Shown in pieces: positions 655 through 9,400 of a stretch of 32,000 bases of DNA. A program made the position numbers and the translations under genes. This DNA comes from Candidatus Electronema halotolerans (GTDB lineage: Bacteria; Desulfobacterota; Desulfobulbia; Desulfobulbales; Desulfobulbaceae). The DNA is taken from the NCBI GenBank assembly GCA_942493095.1, contig OW818675.1:1470001-1502000 (forward strand). The letters run 5' to 3'. Positions within the stretch are counted from its first letter, which is position 1. Each line of letters opens with the position of its first letter. The notes beneath the pieces are model-generated. The model did no database searches. It had not been told where the DNA came from and saw only the letters and a list, made by a program, of their open reading frames with translations.

Positions 655-2130
655 ATGAAATTTCACCTGCCCAATTTCACCAAAAAAAAGAAGCCTGACC
701 AGACGCAAGATGACTTCAGCACCCAGCAGCCCTTTGCCTTAGTCAAATATTTCTCCTTCACTTCCTTGGGCGTGTTCCTGCTCGCCACCCTGATCTTAGT
801 TTTGAGCTTTTCCGGCAATGCCCGCCGGACCATGCTGGAGCGCAGTGAAATCTACTCGCGCATGTTTGCCGAGAGCCTGAACCGGCAGGTCTTTTATCTC
901 TTTGTCCTGCCGACTTTTGTCCGCTACGGACGCATCGCCCTTTCTGATCCGATCCAGTTTGAGCAGCTGGACCTGATTGTCAGCGACATCATTCGCGGCA
1001 TGAAGATCAAGTCCGTGTCCATTTTTGACTCCAAGGAAAATATTGTTTCCTATTCGACCAAAGCCGAGCTGGTCGGGAAAAAAAACATTGGCGGGCTTGA
1101 GTACCAAGAGGCTCTGCGAGGCGAGAATTCCTCAGTGCTGATCGCCACCGGCTCCATGTTCAGCTTTCTGCCCGGCGCGCAGAGCGTGTCCTGCACCCTC
1201 AAGACCTATGTGCCTTTCCGGCAGGACAGCAGAAACGGCGGTTTGGGAGACATCATGGGCGTAGTTGAAGTGGAGCAGGATCTGTCCGGCGACATGGAGG
1301 CCCTGTTCTCGCTTCAGTTCAAAATCATTCTCCTCGCCCTGCTGGTGATGAGCATTCTCTTCTCCGTGCTCATCGCCCTTGTCATCCGGGCGGACCGGAT
1401 CATGGAAAAGAGAGCGCAGGAGCGGCGCGAATTGGAGCGGCAGCTACAAGAGTCCAAGCGGCTGGCCGCGCTCGGCAAGATGATCGCCTCTGTTTCGCAC
1501 GAGATCAAAAACCCCTTGGGCATTGTCCGTTCCACAGCGGAAATTATTGTCCGGCGGATCAGCAAGGTTGCGCCTGGCAACGAGCATTTGGCAGGAATTA
1601 TTGTTGAGGAAACCAGCCGTTTGGACAGAATTGTCCGGGAATTTCTTGATTTTGCCCGGCCCAAGGAACCAACGCTGGCCCACGGTTCGCTGAACGGGCT
1701 GATTGAGCGGCTTCTCACCTTTATGGAGCCAGATTTGCAGGCGAAAAATATCCTGCTCACCCTGCGCTTGGATGAAGATTTGCCGGAAGCGCTGATGGAC
1801 GGCGAGCAAATTTATCAAGTGCTGCTCAATATTGTCTTCAATGCGGTTCATGCCATGAGCGAAAACGGCGGCACCTTGACCATCCGCACTGCCGCGCTGC
1901 CGGAGGGCGGCGTTTCCGTGGCGATTGGCGATACTGGCTGCGGCATGGCGGAAGAAAAGCTGACTCAAATTTTCACCCCTTTTTACACGGATAAAAACCG
2001 GGGCACTGGTCTGGGATTGGCGATCACCAAGAATATTATTGACAAGCACGGCGGCAGCATTGCCGTGCAAAGCAAGGAAGGCGCAGGCACCACATTCACA
2101 GTCTCTCTGGGCGGCGGGAGCGCGGCCTGA
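655..2130 (+). CDS. Membrane sensor histidine kinase (HisKA + HATPase_c)
   Basis: ATG at 655 (the ORF track starts at TTG 649). Two hydrophobic helices flank a roughly 170-aa extracytoplasmic segment. H box SHEIKNPLGIV, N box LLNIVFNAVHAM, G boxes DTGCGM and GTGLGLAITKNIIDKHGGSI. Confidence 0.9.
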   Translation: MKFHLPNFTKKKKPDQTQDDFSTQQPFALVKYFSFTSLGVFLLATLILVLSFSGNARRTMLERSEIYSRMFAESLNRQVFYLFVLPTFVRYGRIALSDPIQFEQLDLIVSDIIRGMKIKSVSIFDSKENIVSYSTKAELVGKKNIGGLEYQEALRGENSSVLIATGSMFSFLPGAQSVSCTLKTYVPFRQDSRNGGLGDIMGVVEVEQDLSGDMEALFSLQFKIILLALLVMSILFSVLIALVIRADRIMEKRAQERRELERQLQESKRLAALGKMIASVSHEIKNPLGIVRSTAEIIVRRISKVAPGNEHLAGIIVEETSRLDRIVREFLDFARPKEPTLAHGSLNGLIERLLTFMEPDLQAKNILLTLRLDEDLPEALMDGEQIYQVLLNIVFNAVHAMSENGGTLTIRTAALPEGGVSVAIGDTGCGMAEEKLTQIFTPFYTDKNRGTGLGLAITKNIIDKHGGSIAVQSKEGAGTTFTVSLGGGSAA

Positions 2131-2132
2131 GT

Positions 2133-2513
2133 TCAGGCGGGCAGGTGCCGGGCCACGGTTTCCAGCACAATGTCGGCGGCAAAGGGCTTGAGGATGAAAT
2201 CGACCGCGCCGAGCTGTAGGCCCTGCCGCCGGTCCTCGGCATCCTCCTTGCCGGAGACGAAGATGACCGGAATATGAGCGGTGGCCGGGTCCGCCTTCAG
2301 TTCCTTGCAGACTGCAAAGCCGTCCATGCCCTCCATCATCACATCAAGCAGGACAATATCCACTGCCGCCGGGTCCTGCCGGACAATTTTCAGAGCAATT
2401 TCCCCCTTTGGCGCGGCCTTGACCGTGTAGCTCTTCTGCAGGATCATGTTGAGCAGCATGAGGTAGCTGGGCGTGTCGTCAACCGCCAGCACGCATTTTT
2501 TCCTTTGTTCCAT
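2133..2513 (-). CDS. Stand-alone CheY-like response-regulator receiver
   Basis: 126 aa. Has VLAVDD acidic pocket, the phospho-acceptor context DIVLLDVMMEGMDG, the conserved S/T in VIFVSG and the Lys in ILKPF. There is no output domain. Confidence 0.9.
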   Translation of the reverse strand: MEQRKKCVLAVDDTPSYLMLLNMILQKSYTVKAAPKGEIALKIVRQDPAAVDIVLLDVMMEGMDGFAVCKELKADPATAHIPVIFVSGKEDAEDRRQGLQLGAVDFILKPFAADIVLETVARHLPA

Positions 2514-2871
2514 TGTTCATCGTGTTATTTTGATTTGACGTGCGTTCAGCCGCCCGTGTGATCCGCTCTCTGAGGATGCGGACAATCTCGACTGTGCCTT
2601 GAAAATGCTCACCTTCCTCAAGCATGACCTGCTCATAAAACTTGCAGGCATAGCAGCTGCTGATAGTGCGGGCAAAAAGGCCCTGCACCTTTTCCGTCGG
2701 GCCGGACATGGTGCCGGTCAAGGCCCAGCAGGCCCGTCCGCCGTTGCTGCCGCTGTTGATGCCGTTGACTGCAGTCAGGGTGGAAGCCGGACACAGGCCG
2801 TGTTTTTTCACATTGACACCGCCGGGCTGCCGTCCGCAGCCCCTGAATTCCCAGCAATTTTTCTTTGTCAT
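2479..2871 (-). CDS. Small Cys-rich protein with two CW motifs (two-CW-type domain)
   Basis: 130 aa with six Cys (C6, C12, C27, C48, C73, C76), including CWEFRGCG and RACW. This matches my recollection of the NCBIfam two-CW domain seen in deltaproteobacterial signalling proteins. Its ATG overlaps the upstream stop (ATGA at 2868-2871) and its 3' end overlaps the receiver gene start by 35 nt. Confidence 0.65.
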   Translation of the reverse strand: MTKKNCWEFRGCGRQPGGVNVKKHGLCPASTLTAVNGINSGSNGGRACWALTGTMSGPTEKVQGLFARTISSCYACKFYEQVMLEEGEHFQGTVEIVRILRERITRAAERTSNQNNTMNNGTKEKMRAGG

Positions 2872-3443
2872 TCGCCGAGCCTCTGTTCAGGCTGAATCAG
2901 CAGACCGTCAAACATTTCGTCAATCTGTTTGTCATCCAAGAAATCAGCAACATGCTTGAGCTGCTCCTGCCGCTGCGCTGCTGTCTGCATATTATTCTTT
3001 TTCTGAGACGGCGCAGGCGCTGCTGTTTTCTTTTTCTTCTCTGCTGTCTCCTGCAGCCGGAAATCTTCCGCCAATGACTCAATCACCCGGTTGATCTCCA
3101 GCCGGGCAATGCCGAAACTGTCCGGGTTGTCCACCAGCAGGACTAAATGAATATGCGATTTTCCCGGCTCGGCCCGGAGCGGATTTCTGCCCTCATTGAG
3201 GCAGCGGAGCAGAATCAGCGCCTTGTCTGTATGCACACAGGTGAGCGCACAGTTGCCAAAACCCATGTCAAGCGCTGTTTTCTGGGCATTGACCAGCATG
3301 TTGTTGGCCAAAGTGGCAATCAGTTTAAGATCAATGTCAAACGGCTCGCATTTGGCCAGCAGACGGCCTTCCGCCGAGAAAAGGGCGGTTCCCAGAAAAC
3401 CATCTATTTCCGCTAACTGAGACAGTTTCTTCTGCACATCCAT
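2868..3443 (-). CDS. Roadblock/LC7 (MglB-like) domain protein with a charged Lys/Gln-rich tail
   Basis: 191 aa. The N-terminal ~115 aa fit the Roadblock/LC7 pattern (IDGFLGTALFSAEGRLLA...; HIHLVLLVD...). A strong SD AAGGAG (plus-strand CTCCTT at 3450-3455) lies 6 nt before the ATG at 3443. Confidence 0.7.
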   Translation of the reverse strand: MDVQKKLSQLAEIDGFLGTALFSAEGRLLAKCEPFDIDLKLIATLANNMLVNAQKTALDMGFGNCALTCVHTDKALILLRCLNEGRNPLRAEPGKSHIHLVLLVDNPDSFGIARLEINRVIESLAEDFRLQETAEKKKKTAAPAPSQKKNNMQTAAQRQEQLKHVADFLDDKQIDEMFDGLLIQPEQRLGE

Positions 3444-3505
3444 ACGATGCTCCTTGGCTTGTTTTCCGGCGGCGGAAATGAAAAAAGGGGCTTCCTCTGC
3501 TTTTT

Positions 3506-3957: not shown

Positions 3958-5031
3958 TCACCCCATCTGCAAATCCAGCACATCCACCAGCCTGCCGTCG
4001 TAGTCATTGACGACCAGCGTCTTCAAGGCGGGGTAGTTGTCCACGCGAATGCTCAGGCTGCTCACTGTTGAGCCGCTGAAGCCGGGCAGGACAAATTCTC
4101 CGTTCCCGGTTGCCGGGACAATCATTCCTGCCGCGCCGCCGTCCTGCATATCGATCAGCTTGAAGGCCAGAATATCATCCTGCACGTTGTGCTCGACCTG
4201 CACCCGCAGCCGCGCATCCGCCGTTAGTTCGCCTGCAATGACAACCACATAAGGCGCAGCCGCGCTGCCGGTGAGAATGCCGGTCTCCGGCGGATTGGGA
4301 TGACCGAGTTGCGCCACGGTCAGAGGGCTGCGCAGTCTGCCGCCGTAGGTGCCGGTGCGCACCGACCCGTGTTCGGTGTACTGCGTGGTGATGGCTGCCA
4401 TGTATTCGTTGTTCCACGGGTGGGCCTGCGCCGGAATGTGCGGCACCAGCAGGATTTGGCTGTCGCTGACGCTGGCAAACTGGGTCTGCACCGCGCTGCC
4501 GCTCTCAGTTCCGGCCAGCACGCAGCGGCAGTCCGGCGACTGCCAGTCAAAGGCGAGATTGCTGCCGCTCAGGCGCAGCACACCGTCCGGGTTGAGGACA
4601 TTGCTCAGGCCGGTGGCAGTGTCCGCAGCCGCCAAGATCGCGGGCATCTTTTCTGTCCACGGCTCGCGCACCAAGGTCGCCTCAGCCTGAAAATCCTTGA
4701 CATACGGCTGTGAAGCCGAGATGTTCAGGCCGAGAAGCTGCTCCATAGGCGGCAGCGGCGCGTCCGGCGCATCCAAGCGGGCGTGAAAGGCGGGCCGGAA
4801 GGTCATGGCATCCTCCAAGGTGACTTGCAGGCCCTCCAGCAGCATGGCCTGTATCTCCTCCATTGCCGAGCGCAGATGGTTCTTGATCTGCTCCGCCGAG
4901 GAGCCGGGATTCTTCAGGGCGACACGGGCCGCCACCTCGTCGTAGCCGCCTGTGCCCTGCGGGACAAAGCGGAGCCGGTAGGAGGCGGGTTTGGTCAGGG
5001 GATTCCGCTCGATGCGATAGTGAACAGCCAT
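3958..5031 (-). CDS. HU-like DNA-binding domain protein with DUF4469-like Ig-fold region and an extra C-terminal domain
   Basis: The start is taken at ATG 5031 (MAVHYRIERNPLTKP...), preceded by SD GGGAGGA. The N-terminal ~90 aa resemble the HU_HIG type histone-like domain. The following region (…GVLRLSGSNLAFDW…ILLVPHIPAQ…) resembles DUF4469. The ORF-track extension to 5349 runs through a non-coding repeat array. Confidence 0.6.
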   Translation of the reverse strand: MAVHYRIERNPLTKPASYRLRFVPQGTGGYDEVAARVALKNPGSSAEQIKNHLRSAMEEIQAMLLEGLQVTLEDAMTFRPAFHARLDAPDAPLPPMEQLLGLNISASQPYVKDFQAEATLVREPWTEKMPAILAAADTATGLSNVLNPDGVLRLSGSNLAFDWQSPDCRCVLAGTESGSAVQTQFASVSDSQILLVPHIPAQAHPWNNEYMAAITTQYTEHGSVRTGTYGGRLRSPLTVAQLGHPNPPETGILTGSAAAPYVVVIAGELTADARLRVQVEHNVQDDILAFKLIDMQDGGAAGMIVPATGNGEFVLPGFSGSTVSSLSIRVDNYPALKTLVVNDYDGRLVDVLDLQMG

Positions 5032-5140
5032 GATGATGTCCTCCCTTGGGGATTTAAGATGCTGATGCAACCGGACAATGCGTTGATTTCCCAAAATACG
5101 GAGCAGCGGGCTTGCTGTCAAGACAAATATGGGCAAAGTC

Positions 5141-5301
5141 CATGCATGCATGGAGTGATTTTCGATGCTGGCATGGAGGATCACTCCAACGTAGCATGGA
5201 GAGGTGCTCCATGCTTGCTTTGAGATTTCCTTCATGCATGCATGGAGAAAAAGTCCAACGCAGCATGGAGATTTATTCCATGCTGGCATGGAGTGGAAGC
5301 C
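5141..5301. repeat. Seven tandem 23-bp units with core GCATGGAG (iteron-like array)
   Basis: Units start at 5141, 5164, 5187, 5210, 5233, 5256 and 5279. Core GCATGGAG is found at 5148, 5171, 5194, 5240, 5263 and 5286; the fourth unit is degenerate (GCTTTGAG at 5217). Units 1 and 5 share CATGCATGCATGGAG, units 2 and 7 share ATGCTGGCATGGAG, and units 3 and 6 share TCCAACG(T/C)AGCATGGAG. Confidence 0.9.
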
Positions 5302-5467
5302 CGGCCTTGATGGGCGTATAGGCGGGGTGCTGCTGCGGGAGATTTTCATAGTTGACGTGGGGGAATATGTGCTGTAAATACTGGATGGATTGCAGAGGAG
5401 CAGTGAAAAGAACGATTGGCAAACAGACTGTCATAAGTCTTTTAAGTTTTATGAATAGGAGATATTT

Positions 5468-5782
5468 ATGGACGAGCAACTGCTTCAGGAAAGAGCAAAA
5501 GAATTGATCGACATTAAAAGGCAGATCAAAAAGCTGCTTATTAAAGAAAAAGAGATGAAAGGCGAGCTGTTGCCGTTAATCAAAGAATATGGGGCCGTTA
5601 ATTTTGATTATGGCAGAGTTTATTACGTAGCATCGAAGGGAGCTGAGACCTTTAGCAGAAAGGTTGTTCTTCAGTATCTAAAAGAAGCCTATGGAGAGGC
5701 TTTAGCTGATCAAGTAGACAGGGATTGCACGAAGCATAATGAGTCAAAAGAGATATTGTACATAACGGTAAATGATTTGTAA
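5468..5782 (+). CDS. Hypothetical 104-aa protein, N-terminal coiled coil (possibly phage- or plasmid-derived)
   Basis: Strong SD AGGAG 6 nt before ATG 5468. The gene is AT-rich. It has a Lys/Glu-rich helical N-terminus (ELIDIKRQIKKLLIKEKEMKGEL). I recognise no family. Confidence 0.6.
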   Translation: MDEQLLQERAKELIDIKRQIKKLLIKEKEMKGELLPLIKEYGAVNFDYGRVYYVASKGAETFSRKVVLQYLKEAYGEALADQVDRDCTKHNESKEILYITVNDL

Positions 5783-5802
5783 CCACTTATGTAGTCGTGC
5801 AG

Positions 5803-5940
5803 TCAGGCAGGGCATATCCCACACGCCGCTTGAACCGACAACTCCTGCGCAATCTCCGCAATAAGCTGCTGCAAGTGCGGTTCGGCCTGCTGCGCCGCCG
5901 CAACGATGTCCTTCAGCAAAATCGGGGCAAGACCCGTAAG
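5803..5940 (-). pseudogene. Possible 3' remnant of a gene (45 codons, no start codon)
   Basis: This minus-strand frame reads LTGLAPILLKDIVAAAQQAEPHLQQLIAEIAQELSVQAACGICPA*. It is a GC-rich, helix-like sequence bounded upstream by an in-frame stop (5941-5943) with no ATG or SD. It is too short to appear in the ORF track. Confidence 0.25.
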
Positions 5941-5976
5941 TCACGCTGAGGAACGCCCCGCACTCTGCAACCTTCT

Positions 5977-6025
5977 CTCCATGCTGCCATTGAGGAACAC
6001 TCCAACGCAGCATGGAGCAGAGGCT
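5977..6025. repeat. Outlying copy of the 23-bp unit, arranged as an 11-nt inverted repeat GCAGCATGGAG
   Basis: CTCCATGCTGC (5977-5987) and GCAGCATGGAG (6007-6017) are perfect reverse complements separated by 19 nt. CACTCCAACGCAGCATGGAG (5998-6017) matches 5182-5201 of the main array at 19 of 20 positions. Confidence 0.85.
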
Positions 6026-6060
6026 CTTCCCTGATGTGTATATATTATCCTTTGGTAATT

Positions 6061-6363
6061 ATGAACATCTTAAAAGGAACGGGAGTGCTTGTGCTGATGG
6101 TTGCATCCTTCCTCGCGGGCATACTATGGAGCAAACACCACCTGTTAGAATCAGGCCCCATGCTCTTGACCTCGTCTCTCACCTTGGCATCAGCGTCAAA
6201 CGGCAAAGGCACGCTCCCAGAGGGCACAATTCTGTATCCATATTCCAAGCACGACACGAATACCTATGTTGTTTTTGTCAACACCAAGAACCTTGATTTG
6301 CTGAAGCCAATATCCTTTGAACAGTATTTAACCGTAGCACCGATCACTGGTTATCGGGAGTAA
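6061..6363 (+). CDS. Hypothetical small membrane-anchored protein
   Basis: Starting at ATG 6061 gives MNILKGTGVLVLMVASFLAGILW (N-terminal TM or signal anchor). There is no clear SD and ATG 6034 is an alternative start. The gene is AT-rich and I recognise no family. Confidence 0.4.
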   Translation: MNILKGTGVLVLMVASFLAGILWSKHHLLESGPMLLTSSLTLASASNGKGTLPEGTILYPYSKHDTNTYVVFVNTKNLDLLKPISFEQYLTVAPITGYRE

Positions 6364-6463
6364 CAGTCAAGCAGAGCGCATTGCTGCTCGAACACAACCA
6401 ACGTGTGGACTATGGCAGCAGGCTCCTGCATGCAGAACAAGCACCATGCCCTTGCCTTGGTGC

Positions 6464-9400
6464 TTAGAACTGGCCGTGCCCTTGCACGACAATCTTTACG
6501 CTGAAGCTGTACGGCTTGCGGGCAATACCGCTGCCGTCAGTCAGCGTCAGGGTGACAGTATAAGCACCCGGCTTCTGGAAAACGTGGCTGACCGCTTCGC
6601 CCTCAGCTTTGCTGCCGTCGCCGAAATCCCAATGGCATATCCAGCTGTCCTGATCAGCATACAAATCCGTGTAAAAGAGCACCTCATCTCTGGCCCCGCC
6701 GCTGAAGACCTGCTCCGGTTCGTGGAGAATTCGCAGCTCCGGCGGCGGCAGAACGGTAACGGCAATTTCTTTTTCAGCAGCAAGACAAGCTGGTTCCTCT
6801 GAGCTGCCGCTGATGCGCAGCCGGACTATGTACTTGCCCGGCTTGCTGTAACTGTGACGGAACGCCCCGCCCTCCAGCGTCTTGCCGTCGCCAGTATCCC
6901 AACTGAAGAGCGGCTGCACACTGCTTTCCTCCAAGAGCACCGGCGTGATGCGCAGCTCCTCGCCGACAAGCACGGTGAGCTGCTCCGGCAGAGCAAGCTC
7001 CGGCAGACTGAGCACCTGCACGGTCAGTGTCGGGCCGGGCTGGCCGTCCACCACAGTGTGGATTTCCCGCCTGCCGCTTTGCGTGAAGGTCATGCGCACC
7101 GCCCTGCCCTGCTCGTTCAGCCCATTGCCGAAATCCCAATGCACCTGCTCGGCCTCGCCGGTCATGGCGTATTGGACTTCCTGATTGACGCAGACCTGGT
7201 CCGGCCCGTCAATCTGCAAGGCTGGCTGGCCAATAACAAAGACGGGCAGCTCGGTCTGCGCCTTGCCGCAAGATAGATCAGCGTTGTCATCCTCCACGGT
7301 CAGGCGGACGGCATACTGGCCCGGCTCCTTAAAGCTGTGCTGAACAAACCAGCCTTCAGCCTGCTGACCATCGCCGAAATCCCAGCTTGCCTTGCTGACC
7401 GCTCCGTCCTCATCAATGCTCTCGGCAGCGGAGAAATGCAGCACGGTGTTGGGCAGCACAGCCTGCGGGGTTTCAAAGCTCATCGCCTTCCCAGCCGCGC
7501 TCCAGCGGATGCGGGGCACAGGCGGCTGATTGATCTTGATTTCCCGGCTGCTCTCCGAGCTGCTACAGACCGAGTTCTCCGGCTTGTCAGCCTTGAGACG
7601 GACAGTGTAACGCCCTGCCCTCTCATAGCTGTGCCCCGCTGAGACCCCGTTGCCAGTCGCGCCGTCGCCAAAATTCCAGCTATATCGGGCTGATTCCCCA
7701 TTAACCGCCGTTGACCCGGAAGCGTCAAAGGTCAGCTTCTCGCCGACGCAGCCGTCGCTGGCCTTGAAATCCGCCTGCGGCGCAGCCAGCACCCGCACCT
7801 TGCGTTCATCCTCAGCCTGATTGTTGCAGCGACTCAGCTCAGGGGTTGTCACGGTCAGTCTGGCCACATACAGACCCGGATCTTTGTAGATATGATTGGT
7901 CTTGGCCAGCACATCCGTGCTGCCGTCGCCAAAATTCCACGCATAGCCGATGATGGGCCGTTCGCCGCCGCTGGAGGCCGTGCCGTCAAAAGCTGCCGGC
8001 GCATTGCTGCACACCTCAATATACTCGCCAGCTCTCGCCACCGGCGCGGCAATGAGCTGAATGTTTTTCCGCGCCTGACCCGCGTTGCATTCCAGACCGG
8101 AATCATCGAGCACGGTCAGATTGATCGGATAATCGCCCGCCTTGTCATAAACCCGGATCGGATTTGACCCTTCCACCTGCTGGCCGTCGCCAAGGTCCCA
8201 GAGATAGCGCAGCGGCCCGCCCTCCGGGTCATTGGACAACGAGCCGTCAAAGAGGACATGCTCGCCGACGCAGAACAGCTCGCCGGCCGTACGGATCACC
8301 GCTTGCGGCGGATGATTGATCTGCACCGTAATCTGCTTGGCATCGCTGCTGTTGCCCAGCCCTGTCTGATCATCCACCCGCAGGCGCACCGGATAGAGAC
8401 CCGGCGCGGCAAACTGGTGGCTGACGGCCACGCCTTGGCCGCTGCTCTGATCGCCGAAATCCCAATGATAGGCCAGCGGGTCTTGGTCAGGGTCAATGCT
8501 GGCCGAGCCGTCAAATTGCACGAACTGTTCGCAGGTATGCACATCCTTGCCCGGTTCTGCTTTAGGCGGGAAATTGACGGCCACAGTCTGCCGGGCGGTG
8601 GAGGTGTCATTGGCTGCGCCGCTCTCATCCTGCACCGTCAGCACGGCCTGATAACGGCCCGGTTCAGCATAGACATGCTTGACCTGCCTGCCCTCGCCCT
8701 TGCCGCCGTCGCCGAAGTCCCAGCTGCAGGCAGCAATGCCGCCGTCCGCATCTGTTGAGCCGGAAGCATCAAGCAGGACTTCCTTGCCCGGCTCAACACG
8801 CGGCAGAGCCTGCATCCGGGCAACGGGCTGGCTATTGACGGTCACGGTCAGATAATCACTGTGGCTCGCGCCGTCGTTGTCAACAACGGTCAGGCCAACC
8901 TGATACTGGCCGGGCTGGTCAAACTGATGCGCAAACTTTGCTTCCGTATATTTTTTGTCCTCAACCTGCCACGTGAAAGAACTGATCGTGCCGTCCTGAT
9001 CTAAAGAACGGCTGCCGTCAAACTGCACGGTTTCGCCCGGAGCGATGAGCTGATCTGCTCCGGCATCAGCAACTGGTGGCGCATTGACCCGGATGGCCTG
9101 CTGCGCCGACTGCGTCGCGCTGGCCGTGCCGGAAGCATCGGTCACGCGGAGCTGCACCATATAGGTGCCGGGCAGCGGATAAACATGACTGACGTTCACG
9201 CCTTCAGCCTTGCCGCCGTCGCCGAAGTCCCACGTATAACCAATGATCTTGTCGTCCGCATCGCTGGACTTGGAGGCATCAAAGACGACTTGGCTGGTGT
9301 TGACAATCTCCGGCATGGTGATGACCGGCACCGGCGGTGCATTGATCCGCACGGTCTGTTCTGCGAACTGACTTGCATTGCCGACCCCGGAGTCATCCTT

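Follow-up and report, generated by a model that had tools for sequence, protein, structure and literature searches.

A 23-bp tandem repeat array in the cable bacterium Candidatus Electronema halotolerans as the likely private binding array of a predicted HU-like protein

Results

The window analyzed here is a stretch of 32,000 nucleotides from the chromosome of the cable bacterium Candidatus Electronema halotolerans (contig OW818675.1), in which an intergenic tandem array separates two divergent genes. To the left lies 3958-5031 (- strand), which encodes a 357-aa protein with a predicted HU-like N-terminal domain and Ig-like domains (DUF4469, HU-HIG-like; hereafter HU-Ig). To the right lies 5468-5782 (+ strand), which encodes a 104-aa phage-like protein (phrog_6244, an uncharacterized phage family). 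The locus sits on a 3.2-Mb chromosomal contig among housekeeping genes, and its wider neighborhood comprises genes for a two-component system, a PKD-repeat protein, a Na+/H+ exchanger and exopolysaccharide functions.

A sequence-only reading of this DNA had described seven tandem 23-bp units beside an AT-rich stretch, and this observation is confirmed, with all seven units and the 23-bp register present as described. Tandem Repeats Finder (TRF) reports 5139-5293 with a period of 23 and 6.7 copies. The core GCATGGAG occurs 12 times in the window against 2.25 expected, and 0 of 100 shuffles reach 12. Each unit is better described as an imperfect 18-bp palindrome, CTCCATGC-NN-GCATGGAG, followed by a 5-bp A/T-rich spacer, so that the main array spans 5138-5293 with units starting at 5138, 5161, 5184, 5207, 5230, 5253 and 5276. 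The 18-mer with up to 3 mismatches gives 8 hits in the window against 0.44 expected, all at this locus.

Two features had been missed by that reading. Two further units 23 bp apart (CTCCATGCTGCCATTGAG and CTCCAACGCAGCATGGAG) form a mini-array at 5977-5994 and 6000-6017, which is 88% identical to units 2-3 and whose right flank resembles 5294-5320. This mini-array lies 43 bp upstream of 6061-6363 (+ strand), a small predicted membrane-protein gene without family hits that is a possible second target. In addition, a second half-site class, CTCCAACG, is present in units 3, 6 and 9, and forms the left half-site of units 3 and 6. A possible degenerate eighth unit (GCCCGGCCTTGATGGGCG) lies at 5299-5316, in the 51-bp spacer between the array and the promoter to its right. 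Other loci have a 28-bp spacer, exactly one period shorter, and the segment is conserved in two related loci, L016 and L032 (related loci are designated L followed by a number), but we hold this assignment with low confidence.

The array lies between two divergent sigma70-type promoters. The promoter of the HU-Ig gene, P_HU (5093-5121, - strand), has a -35 TTGACA at 5121-5116, a 17-bp spacer and a -10 TATTTT at 5098-5093; it lies 16 bp from unit 1, whose dyad is 25.5 bp upstream of the -35. On the other side, a GC-rich spacer is followed by an outward promoter, P_C (5352-5380, + strand), with a -35 TTGACG at 5352-5357, a 17-bp spacer and a -10 TAAATA at 5375-5380, as read from the sequence. 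The AT-richer segment at 5340-5467 is real (36.7% GC) and consists of this conserved promoter and the 5' leader of gene 5468-5782. The ORFs that read through the array are spurious: the true start of the left gene is 5031, where homologues all start, with a GGAGG just upstream.

Both promoters fire away from the array, so that neither transcript covers it. This makes an RNA-level role, in which the array would be transcribed into a string of hairpins such as a CsrB-like protein sponge with GGA motifs or an mRNA-stabilizing REP-like structure, very unlikely. In its favor, GCAUGGAG contains GGA, the units can form 6-bp hairpins, and folding is far better than for shuffled sequences. However, Rfam searches found nothing at gathering thresholds and only sub-threshold miRNA-like noise when relaxed, the GGA would lie in stems rather than loops, and the arrays of paralogues lack GGA and often lack dyad symmetry.

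The sequence-only reading favored an iteron-type plasmid origin such as R6K gamma, with a partition centromere or a multi-operator for a dimeric regulator as alternatives. A replication origin or centromere of an integrated or cryptic replicon is consistent with seven repeats of about 23 bp beside a 36.7% GC stretch, with the neighboring gene for a putative DNA-binding protein, and with the lower GC of the 5001-6500 region relative to its flanks. But the setting is chromosomal, the adjacent protein has a predicted HU fold plus Ig-like domains rather than a Rep or ParB fold, no DnaA box (TTATCCACA with up to 1 mismatch) exists in the 32 kb, and no Rep family hit was found in Pfam, NCBIfam or PHROGs. 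No ParA/ParM NTPase or ParB/ParR/ParG adaptor was found within several kb on either side, in the window or in more than 80 related loci. The units are dyads rather than asymmetric iterons, and dozens of paralogous protein/array pairs exist. An origin or centromere fails every test except the repeat period, and we regard it as largely refuted.

The protein encoded next to the array belongs structurally with the HU-HIG clade of the HU/IHF superfamily. Pfam and NCBIfam searches gave hits to HU-DNA_bdg, HU-HIG, DUF4469 and HU_rel that were all below the curated cut-offs; the DUF4469 hit (E 0.0033) is below the cut-off for this sequence, but the domain is precomputed for many homologues, which sources name "DUF4469 domain-containing protein". 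An AlphaFold2 model (pLDDT 83) shows beta-sandwich domains, and its top Foldseek match is 4FMR (E 3e-11, probability 1), the Bacteroides HU-HIG protein BVU_2165 with an Ig domain. The N-terminal domain matches HU structures 6n2l (TM 0.79) and 5l8z and the IHF structure 8flj. We found 631 homologues, nearly all from cable bacteria, and all those that a source names are from Ca. Electronema, Ca. Electrothrix or Desulfobulbaceae, outside the Bacteroidetes to which the clade was described as restricted. As in HU-HIG, the family shows lineage-specific expansion, variable gene neighbors with no conserved operon partner, and rapid divergence of the HU domain: the most variable part is the helical body of that domain (entropy 1.98 for residues 29-68), against 1.21 for the first Ig domain, the most conserved segment.

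We next asked whether the motif occurs elsewhere. Its presence at many unrelated intergenic sites had been named by the sequence-only reading as grounds for rejecting that reading. A scan of one genome per species with a strict 20-base pattern returned nine real loci, all from Ca. Electronema spp. or Desulfobulbaceae MAGs, and one chance hit in Faecalibacterium (L020). These included at least four loci, on four contigs, in the draft genome of Electronema sp. TJ and at least two, on two contigs, in MAG S01.Bin068, while only one array pair lies in the 32-kb window. All nine loci have 4-11 units at exactly 23 bp. Four of them (L017, L019, L022 and L023), like the window, lie directly upstream of an orthologue of the 357-aa gene. 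The other five (L015, L016, L018, L021 and L024), in genomes that carry this paralogue, lie next to unrelated genes: an AbiTii gene, a ThiC-family gene behind a cobalamin riboswitch, a hydantoinase-like ORF, an SH3-domain gene and an MqnA-like ORF. The motif is thus found at several unrelated intergenic sites per genome, although the copy number found with this strict pattern is low and the arrays travel with promoters.

The flanks of these arrays are conserved as well. The right-hand module, cggaaGC..(28 or 51 bp)..TTCTCTGTTGACGyGGGGGGATGTGCGCTGTAA, is P_C, whose promoter part is conserved next to arrays in at least 11 loci, and the left-hand module is P_HU. L016 has P_C-like modules on both sides, L018 has a copy of P_HU although no HU-like gene follows, and L017 has a P_HU/P_C pair with no units between them. 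In L016, P_C lies about 40 nt upstream of the cobalamin riboswitch, as expected of a working promoter. A logo of 81 window-type units from 12 loci is symmetric, C-T-C-C-A-T-G-C-[T/C]-[A/G]-G-C-A-T-G-G-A-G, with A5 and T14 invariant, and CTCCAACG appears in it as a discrete alternative half-site that can occupy either side. By contrast, the array is not linked to the 104-aa gene, whose homologues in Sedimenticola, Shewanella and metagenomes have no such array. This gene has low GC and appears to be variable cargo.

The decisive comparison came from more distant homologues of the 357-aa protein. The four examined first (71, 61, 60 and 51% identity) each have a 23-bp-period array 40-250 bp upstream of the gene, but with different units, roughly CTCGAACGTAGGTTCGAG, ATACATGCTAGCATGTAT (in two of them) and TTGATCGGGAGAGATACGCATCA. 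We then retrieved 80 metagenomic loci of the family. In the 68 with enough sequence, the best self-similarity lag (among lags of 8-59 bp) in the 450 bp upstream of the gene was 23 in 51, 46 in 5, 45 in 4, and 22 or 24 in 2, a total of 62 of 68. In controls, lag 23 was best in 1 of 75 coding regions and 1 of 46 downstream regions. TRF found arrays of period 22-24 or 46 in 43 of 63 loci. A promoter of the form TTGACA-N17-TAnnnT is near-invariant, being present at -82 to -108 from the ATG in 69 of 72 loci.

While the period is held, the unit sequences are not. Unit consensus sequences fall into 29 clusters among 47 delineated arrays, and these clusters follow the protein tree. Two paralogues only 8 kb apart on one contig carry unrelated arrays, one of the window type with P_C and the other of the TTGATCGG type. 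No single common factor can therefore read all the arrays by sequence, and the only locus-specific partner that diverges with the array is the adjacent gene, although some co-divergence of a gene and its upstream region is expected from ancestry alone. Dyad symmetry is enriched, with 22 of 43 consensus units having at least 7 of 9 complementary pairs against 4.6% of shuffles. This fits a homodimer, but about half of the paralogue arrays have units with little dyad symmetry, so that a simple homodimer-on-palindrome model cannot be general. The distance from the dyad axis to the -35 of P_HU, taken modulo 11.5, falls in 0.5-6.5 for all 16 dyad-symmetric motif types, and is 2.5 in the window. A second paralogue type (L027) also has a two-unit mini-array with a duplicated P_HU-type promoter in front of an unrelated gene, mirroring the mini-array at 5977-6017.

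We considered whether the array could be a dispersed selfish or structural repeat of the REP/BIME, BOX or MIRU kind, a modular promoter-(23-bp unit)n-promoter element that spreads by duplication or recombination without any specific relation to the HU-Ig protein. The multi-locus copies, the co-duplicated flanks, the variation in unit number from 2 to 11, the hypervariability between strains and the breaking of short-read contigs at the array edge are all compatible with this view. Insertion of a mobile repeat cannot, however, explain why 62 of 68 paralogous genes have an array at the same place, with the same period and register but with 29 unrelated unit types. Only a handful of copies were found, all upstream of promoters rather than at 3' ends, no transposase is associated, and nothing was found in viral contigs. 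We consider this reading unlikely, although the co-duplication of flanks and promoters shows that DNA-level spread contributes to dispersal, part of which may reflect duplication or mobility rather than selection for a regulon.

It is also possible, but again unlikely, that the array is a cis-acting promoter element not read by the adjacent protein, either a variable-number tandem repeat that tunes or phase-varies P_HU and P_C through copy-number change, intrinsic curvature or cruciform extrusion, or a site for an unidentified factor that recognizes shape rather than sequence. Differences in unit number between loci and strains, the fixed register to the -35, the strong single-strand and cruciform potential (z = -6.4) and the A/T-rich spacers fit this view. 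However, within-array homogeneity with symmetric and invariant positions points to sequence readout, many paralogue arrays are not palindromic, so that cruciforms are not general, and neutral slippage would not hold the period at 23 bp across 29 sequence types.

Discussion

A period held at 23 bp, a fixed register to a conserved promoter and within-array homogeneity coexist with complete turnover of the unit sequence between paralogues, a combination that indicates a structural constraint imposed by a locus-specific reader. We therefore propose, with moderate confidence, that the array is the cognate multi-operator, iteron-like in architecture only, of the HU-Ig protein encoded at 3958-5031. 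In this hypothesis, one homodimer would bind each 18-bp dyad, and neighboring dimers 23 bp apart, about 2.2 helical turns, would form a cooperative and probably DNA-bending nucleoprotein filament directly upstream of P_HU and P_C. The filament would set the expression of the protein's own gene and that of a small regulon, comprising variable cargo genes behind P_C and genes behind extra "array + promoter" modules such as the two-unit site at 5977-6017. Our comparisons establish the anatomy of the locus, the family-wide association, the co-divergence, the fixed register and the conservation of the promoters, whereas binding by the HU-Ig protein, its oligomerization and the sign of regulation are inferred on purely comparative grounds. 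The sequence-only reading is thus partly supported: its architectural comparison and its secondary suggestion of a multi-operator hold up, and the 3958-5031 product, one of two that it named for binding assays, is the best candidate binder, but its main reading as a plasmid-type origin or partition centromere is not supported.

This proposal departs from current views of the HU-HIG clade. Burroughs et al. (2017, PMC5499826) described it as a fast-diverging expansion in Bacteroidetes with no operon partners and no known function, and judged its members unlikely to be sequence-specific transcription factors. They also noted that in 4FMR, the only solved relative, the Ig domain occupies part of the canonical DNA saddle. 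The proteins studied here share the N-terminal HU-like domain fused to an Ig-like domain, but are longer (357 aa, with additional beta domains), occur in Desulfobulbaceae cable bacteria, and are tied to a tandem DNA array that has not been reported for HU-HIG. In the literature library searched, we found no paper that mentions DUF4469 or these arrays in cable bacteria.

Tandem operator arrays placed next to the gene of their binder have precedents. The iteron/Rep modules of theta plasmids (R6K gamma, pPS10, F, P1, RK2) also have binding sites of about 17-22 bp at a period of about 22-23 bp next to the gene of the presumed binder, with a conserved period, family-specific sequences and expected autoregulation. 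Here, however, the protein is HU-fold plus Ig rather than a winged-helix Rep, the units are dyad-symmetric, there are no DnaA boxes and no DNA-unwinding element, the array lies between two promoters on a chromosome whose lineage carries many paralogous pairs, and there is no evidence of a replication function. The centromere/operator arrays of type Ib and type II partition systems and of omega (R1 parC/ParR, TP228 parH/ParG, pSM19035 omega heptads) are likewise short repeats at the promoter of the binder's gene, and cooperative binding of dimers would in both cases build a superstructure that also autoregulates. They differ in their ParA or ParM partner, their ribbon-helix-helix fold, their plasmid location and their shorter unit, the unit here being 23 bp with an 18-bp dyad. 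REP/BIME, BOX and MIRU repeats are also intergenic, multi-locus arrays of short, often palindromic units with variable copy number and modular flanks, and BIMEs are bound by IHF, which has an HU fold. In our case the copy number found is low, the position is always upstream of promoters, and each of many unit types is tied to its own paralogous gene at a conserved period. The architecture works like iteron/Rep modules or centromere/ParR-type operator arrays, but the locus is not a member of those families, because their defining partners were tested for and are absent. What we propose is an autoregulatory tandem operator array, but for an expanded HU-Ig family with private specificities.

More speculatively, cable bacteria may carry a large set of mutually orthogonal pairs, each consisting of an HU-fold/Ig protein and its own 23-bp array, which would build sequence-addressed nucleoprotein filaments at defined chromosomal sites, together with portable "array + promoter" modules wired to accessory genes. 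If so, the HU-HIG type of nucleoid protein would be a sequence-specific, fast-evolving DNA-recognition system, contrary to the published inference, whose specificity could be reprogrammed by concerted evolution of the array and the HU domain. Possible roles include locus marking or insulation in a multicellular filament, or self/non-self conflicts. This extended view remains tentative.

HU-HIG/DUF4469 proteins form a large, fast-evolving family with no known function or target, and our results provide a concrete candidate target in front of nearly every family member in cable bacteria. If binding is confirmed, HU-fold proteins can evolve many orthogonal sequence specificities, and a natural set of protein/array pairs with a common geometry becomes available, both for studying how specificity evolves and as orthogonal parts. 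Cable bacteria, which cannot yet be grown in pure culture, would gain a new layer of gene control or chromosome organization.

Several other associations were examined. PADLOC gave no defense-system hits. No HU-Ig relatives were found in IMG/VR, and the 13 viral hits to a two-core DNA pattern carry no palindromic arrays and are chance matches. A reading of the N-terminal hairpin tip (N-P-L-T-x-P) as the HU intercalating arm was set aside, as most paralogues have Ala instead of Pro there. A PDB sequence search with an HU-like query, meant to reach the 4FMR sequence and the Bacteroides HU-HIG genes, returned only classical HU and IHF. For the GC-rich stretch at 5783-5976, the only match found was one of 28 bp to L017.

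Finally, the array turns over much faster than its flanks. One metagenomic contig (L004) carries a seven-unit array in the same place that keeps the unit architecture but is only 76.9% identical to that of the window, while the next 174 bp are 99.4% identical. Several short-read metagenome contigs that encode the identical 104-aa protein end exactly at the array edge, and our results explain why short-read contigs of these organisms break at these arrays.

Sequence features around the array and its cargo

The cargo segment of the window that holds the 104-aa gene is bracketed by two similar pieces of array end and flank (positions 5253-5320 versus 5977-6044), which are 71-88% identical. This suggests that the segment was inserted or duplicated by recombination between array units. 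The 104-aa protein itself (5468-5782) matches phage family phrog_6244 and has 59-80% identical homologues in Sedimenticola, Shewanella and metagenomes, some of which lie next to integrase or IS genes. The GC content of this gene is 38.7% against 56% for the window, and it was therefore probably acquired horizontally. It is followed by a GC-rich stretch (5783-5976, 59% GC) within an otherwise low-GC region. On the minus strand this stretch has an open frame ending in ILLKDIVAAAQQAEPHLQQLIAEIAQELSVQAACGICPA followed by a stop codon, but without a start codon far enough upstream. It is probably a gene remnant, and the only match found was one of 28 bp to L017, a locus where a window-type array lies upstream of an orthologue of the HU-Ig gene. 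Elsewhere in the window, a minus-strand cluster (2133-3443) encodes a response regulator, a two-CW-domain protein (NF045718) and a Roadblock/LC7-like protein, and lies next to a histidine kinase gene on the plus strand (649-2130).

The window-type arrays (those of the window and of loci L015-L019, L021-L024 and L109) were compared for an alternative half-site, CTCCAACG, which differs from CTCCATGC by three linked changes. It recurs in most of these arrays, on either side of the dyad, and is the dominant half-site in the Electrothrix orthologue (L025). As judged from sequence alone, this suggests either two recognized half-site classes or a second binding partner.

Variation at related loci

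In L017 (about 1985-2080), a divergent pair of promoters resembling P_HU and P_C, the promoters that flank the array in the window, was found with no repeat units between them. The P_HU-like copy faces a lamin-tail-domain gene (1274-1924, minus strand), and the pair represents an array-less version of the module. In L016, where a window-type array lies next to a ThiC-family radical SAM gene, a cobalamin riboswitch (3328-3498, 79.5 bits) is located between the P_C promoter and this gene, which is therefore more likely to be a benzimidazole (Bza-type) synthase than a thiamine ThiC.

The last ∼34 codons of the HU-Ig gene are duplicated 0.7-1.4 kb downstream of the intact gene in L017 (2340-2441) and in L022 (3643-3744 and 3741-4398), another locus where the array precedes an orthologue of this gene. 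In L022, a nucleotidyltransferase/HEPN-like toxin-antitoxin pair sits between the two copies. This arrangement looks like an insertion into the 3′ end of the gene, with duplication of the target.

Repeats of other kinds were also observed. In Ca. Electrothrix gigas (L026, 1-1927), the gene upstream of the HU-Ig paralogue contains about 15 tandem repeats of 126 bp (42 codons) at 88-90% identity. In L024, one of the loci with a window-type array next to an unrelated gene, an unrelated repeat with units about 105 bp apart (TTCCTTGCTGGCAATGAG) lies at 2950-3370, in a region whose ORFs encode reiterated MPHCQ-type peptides.
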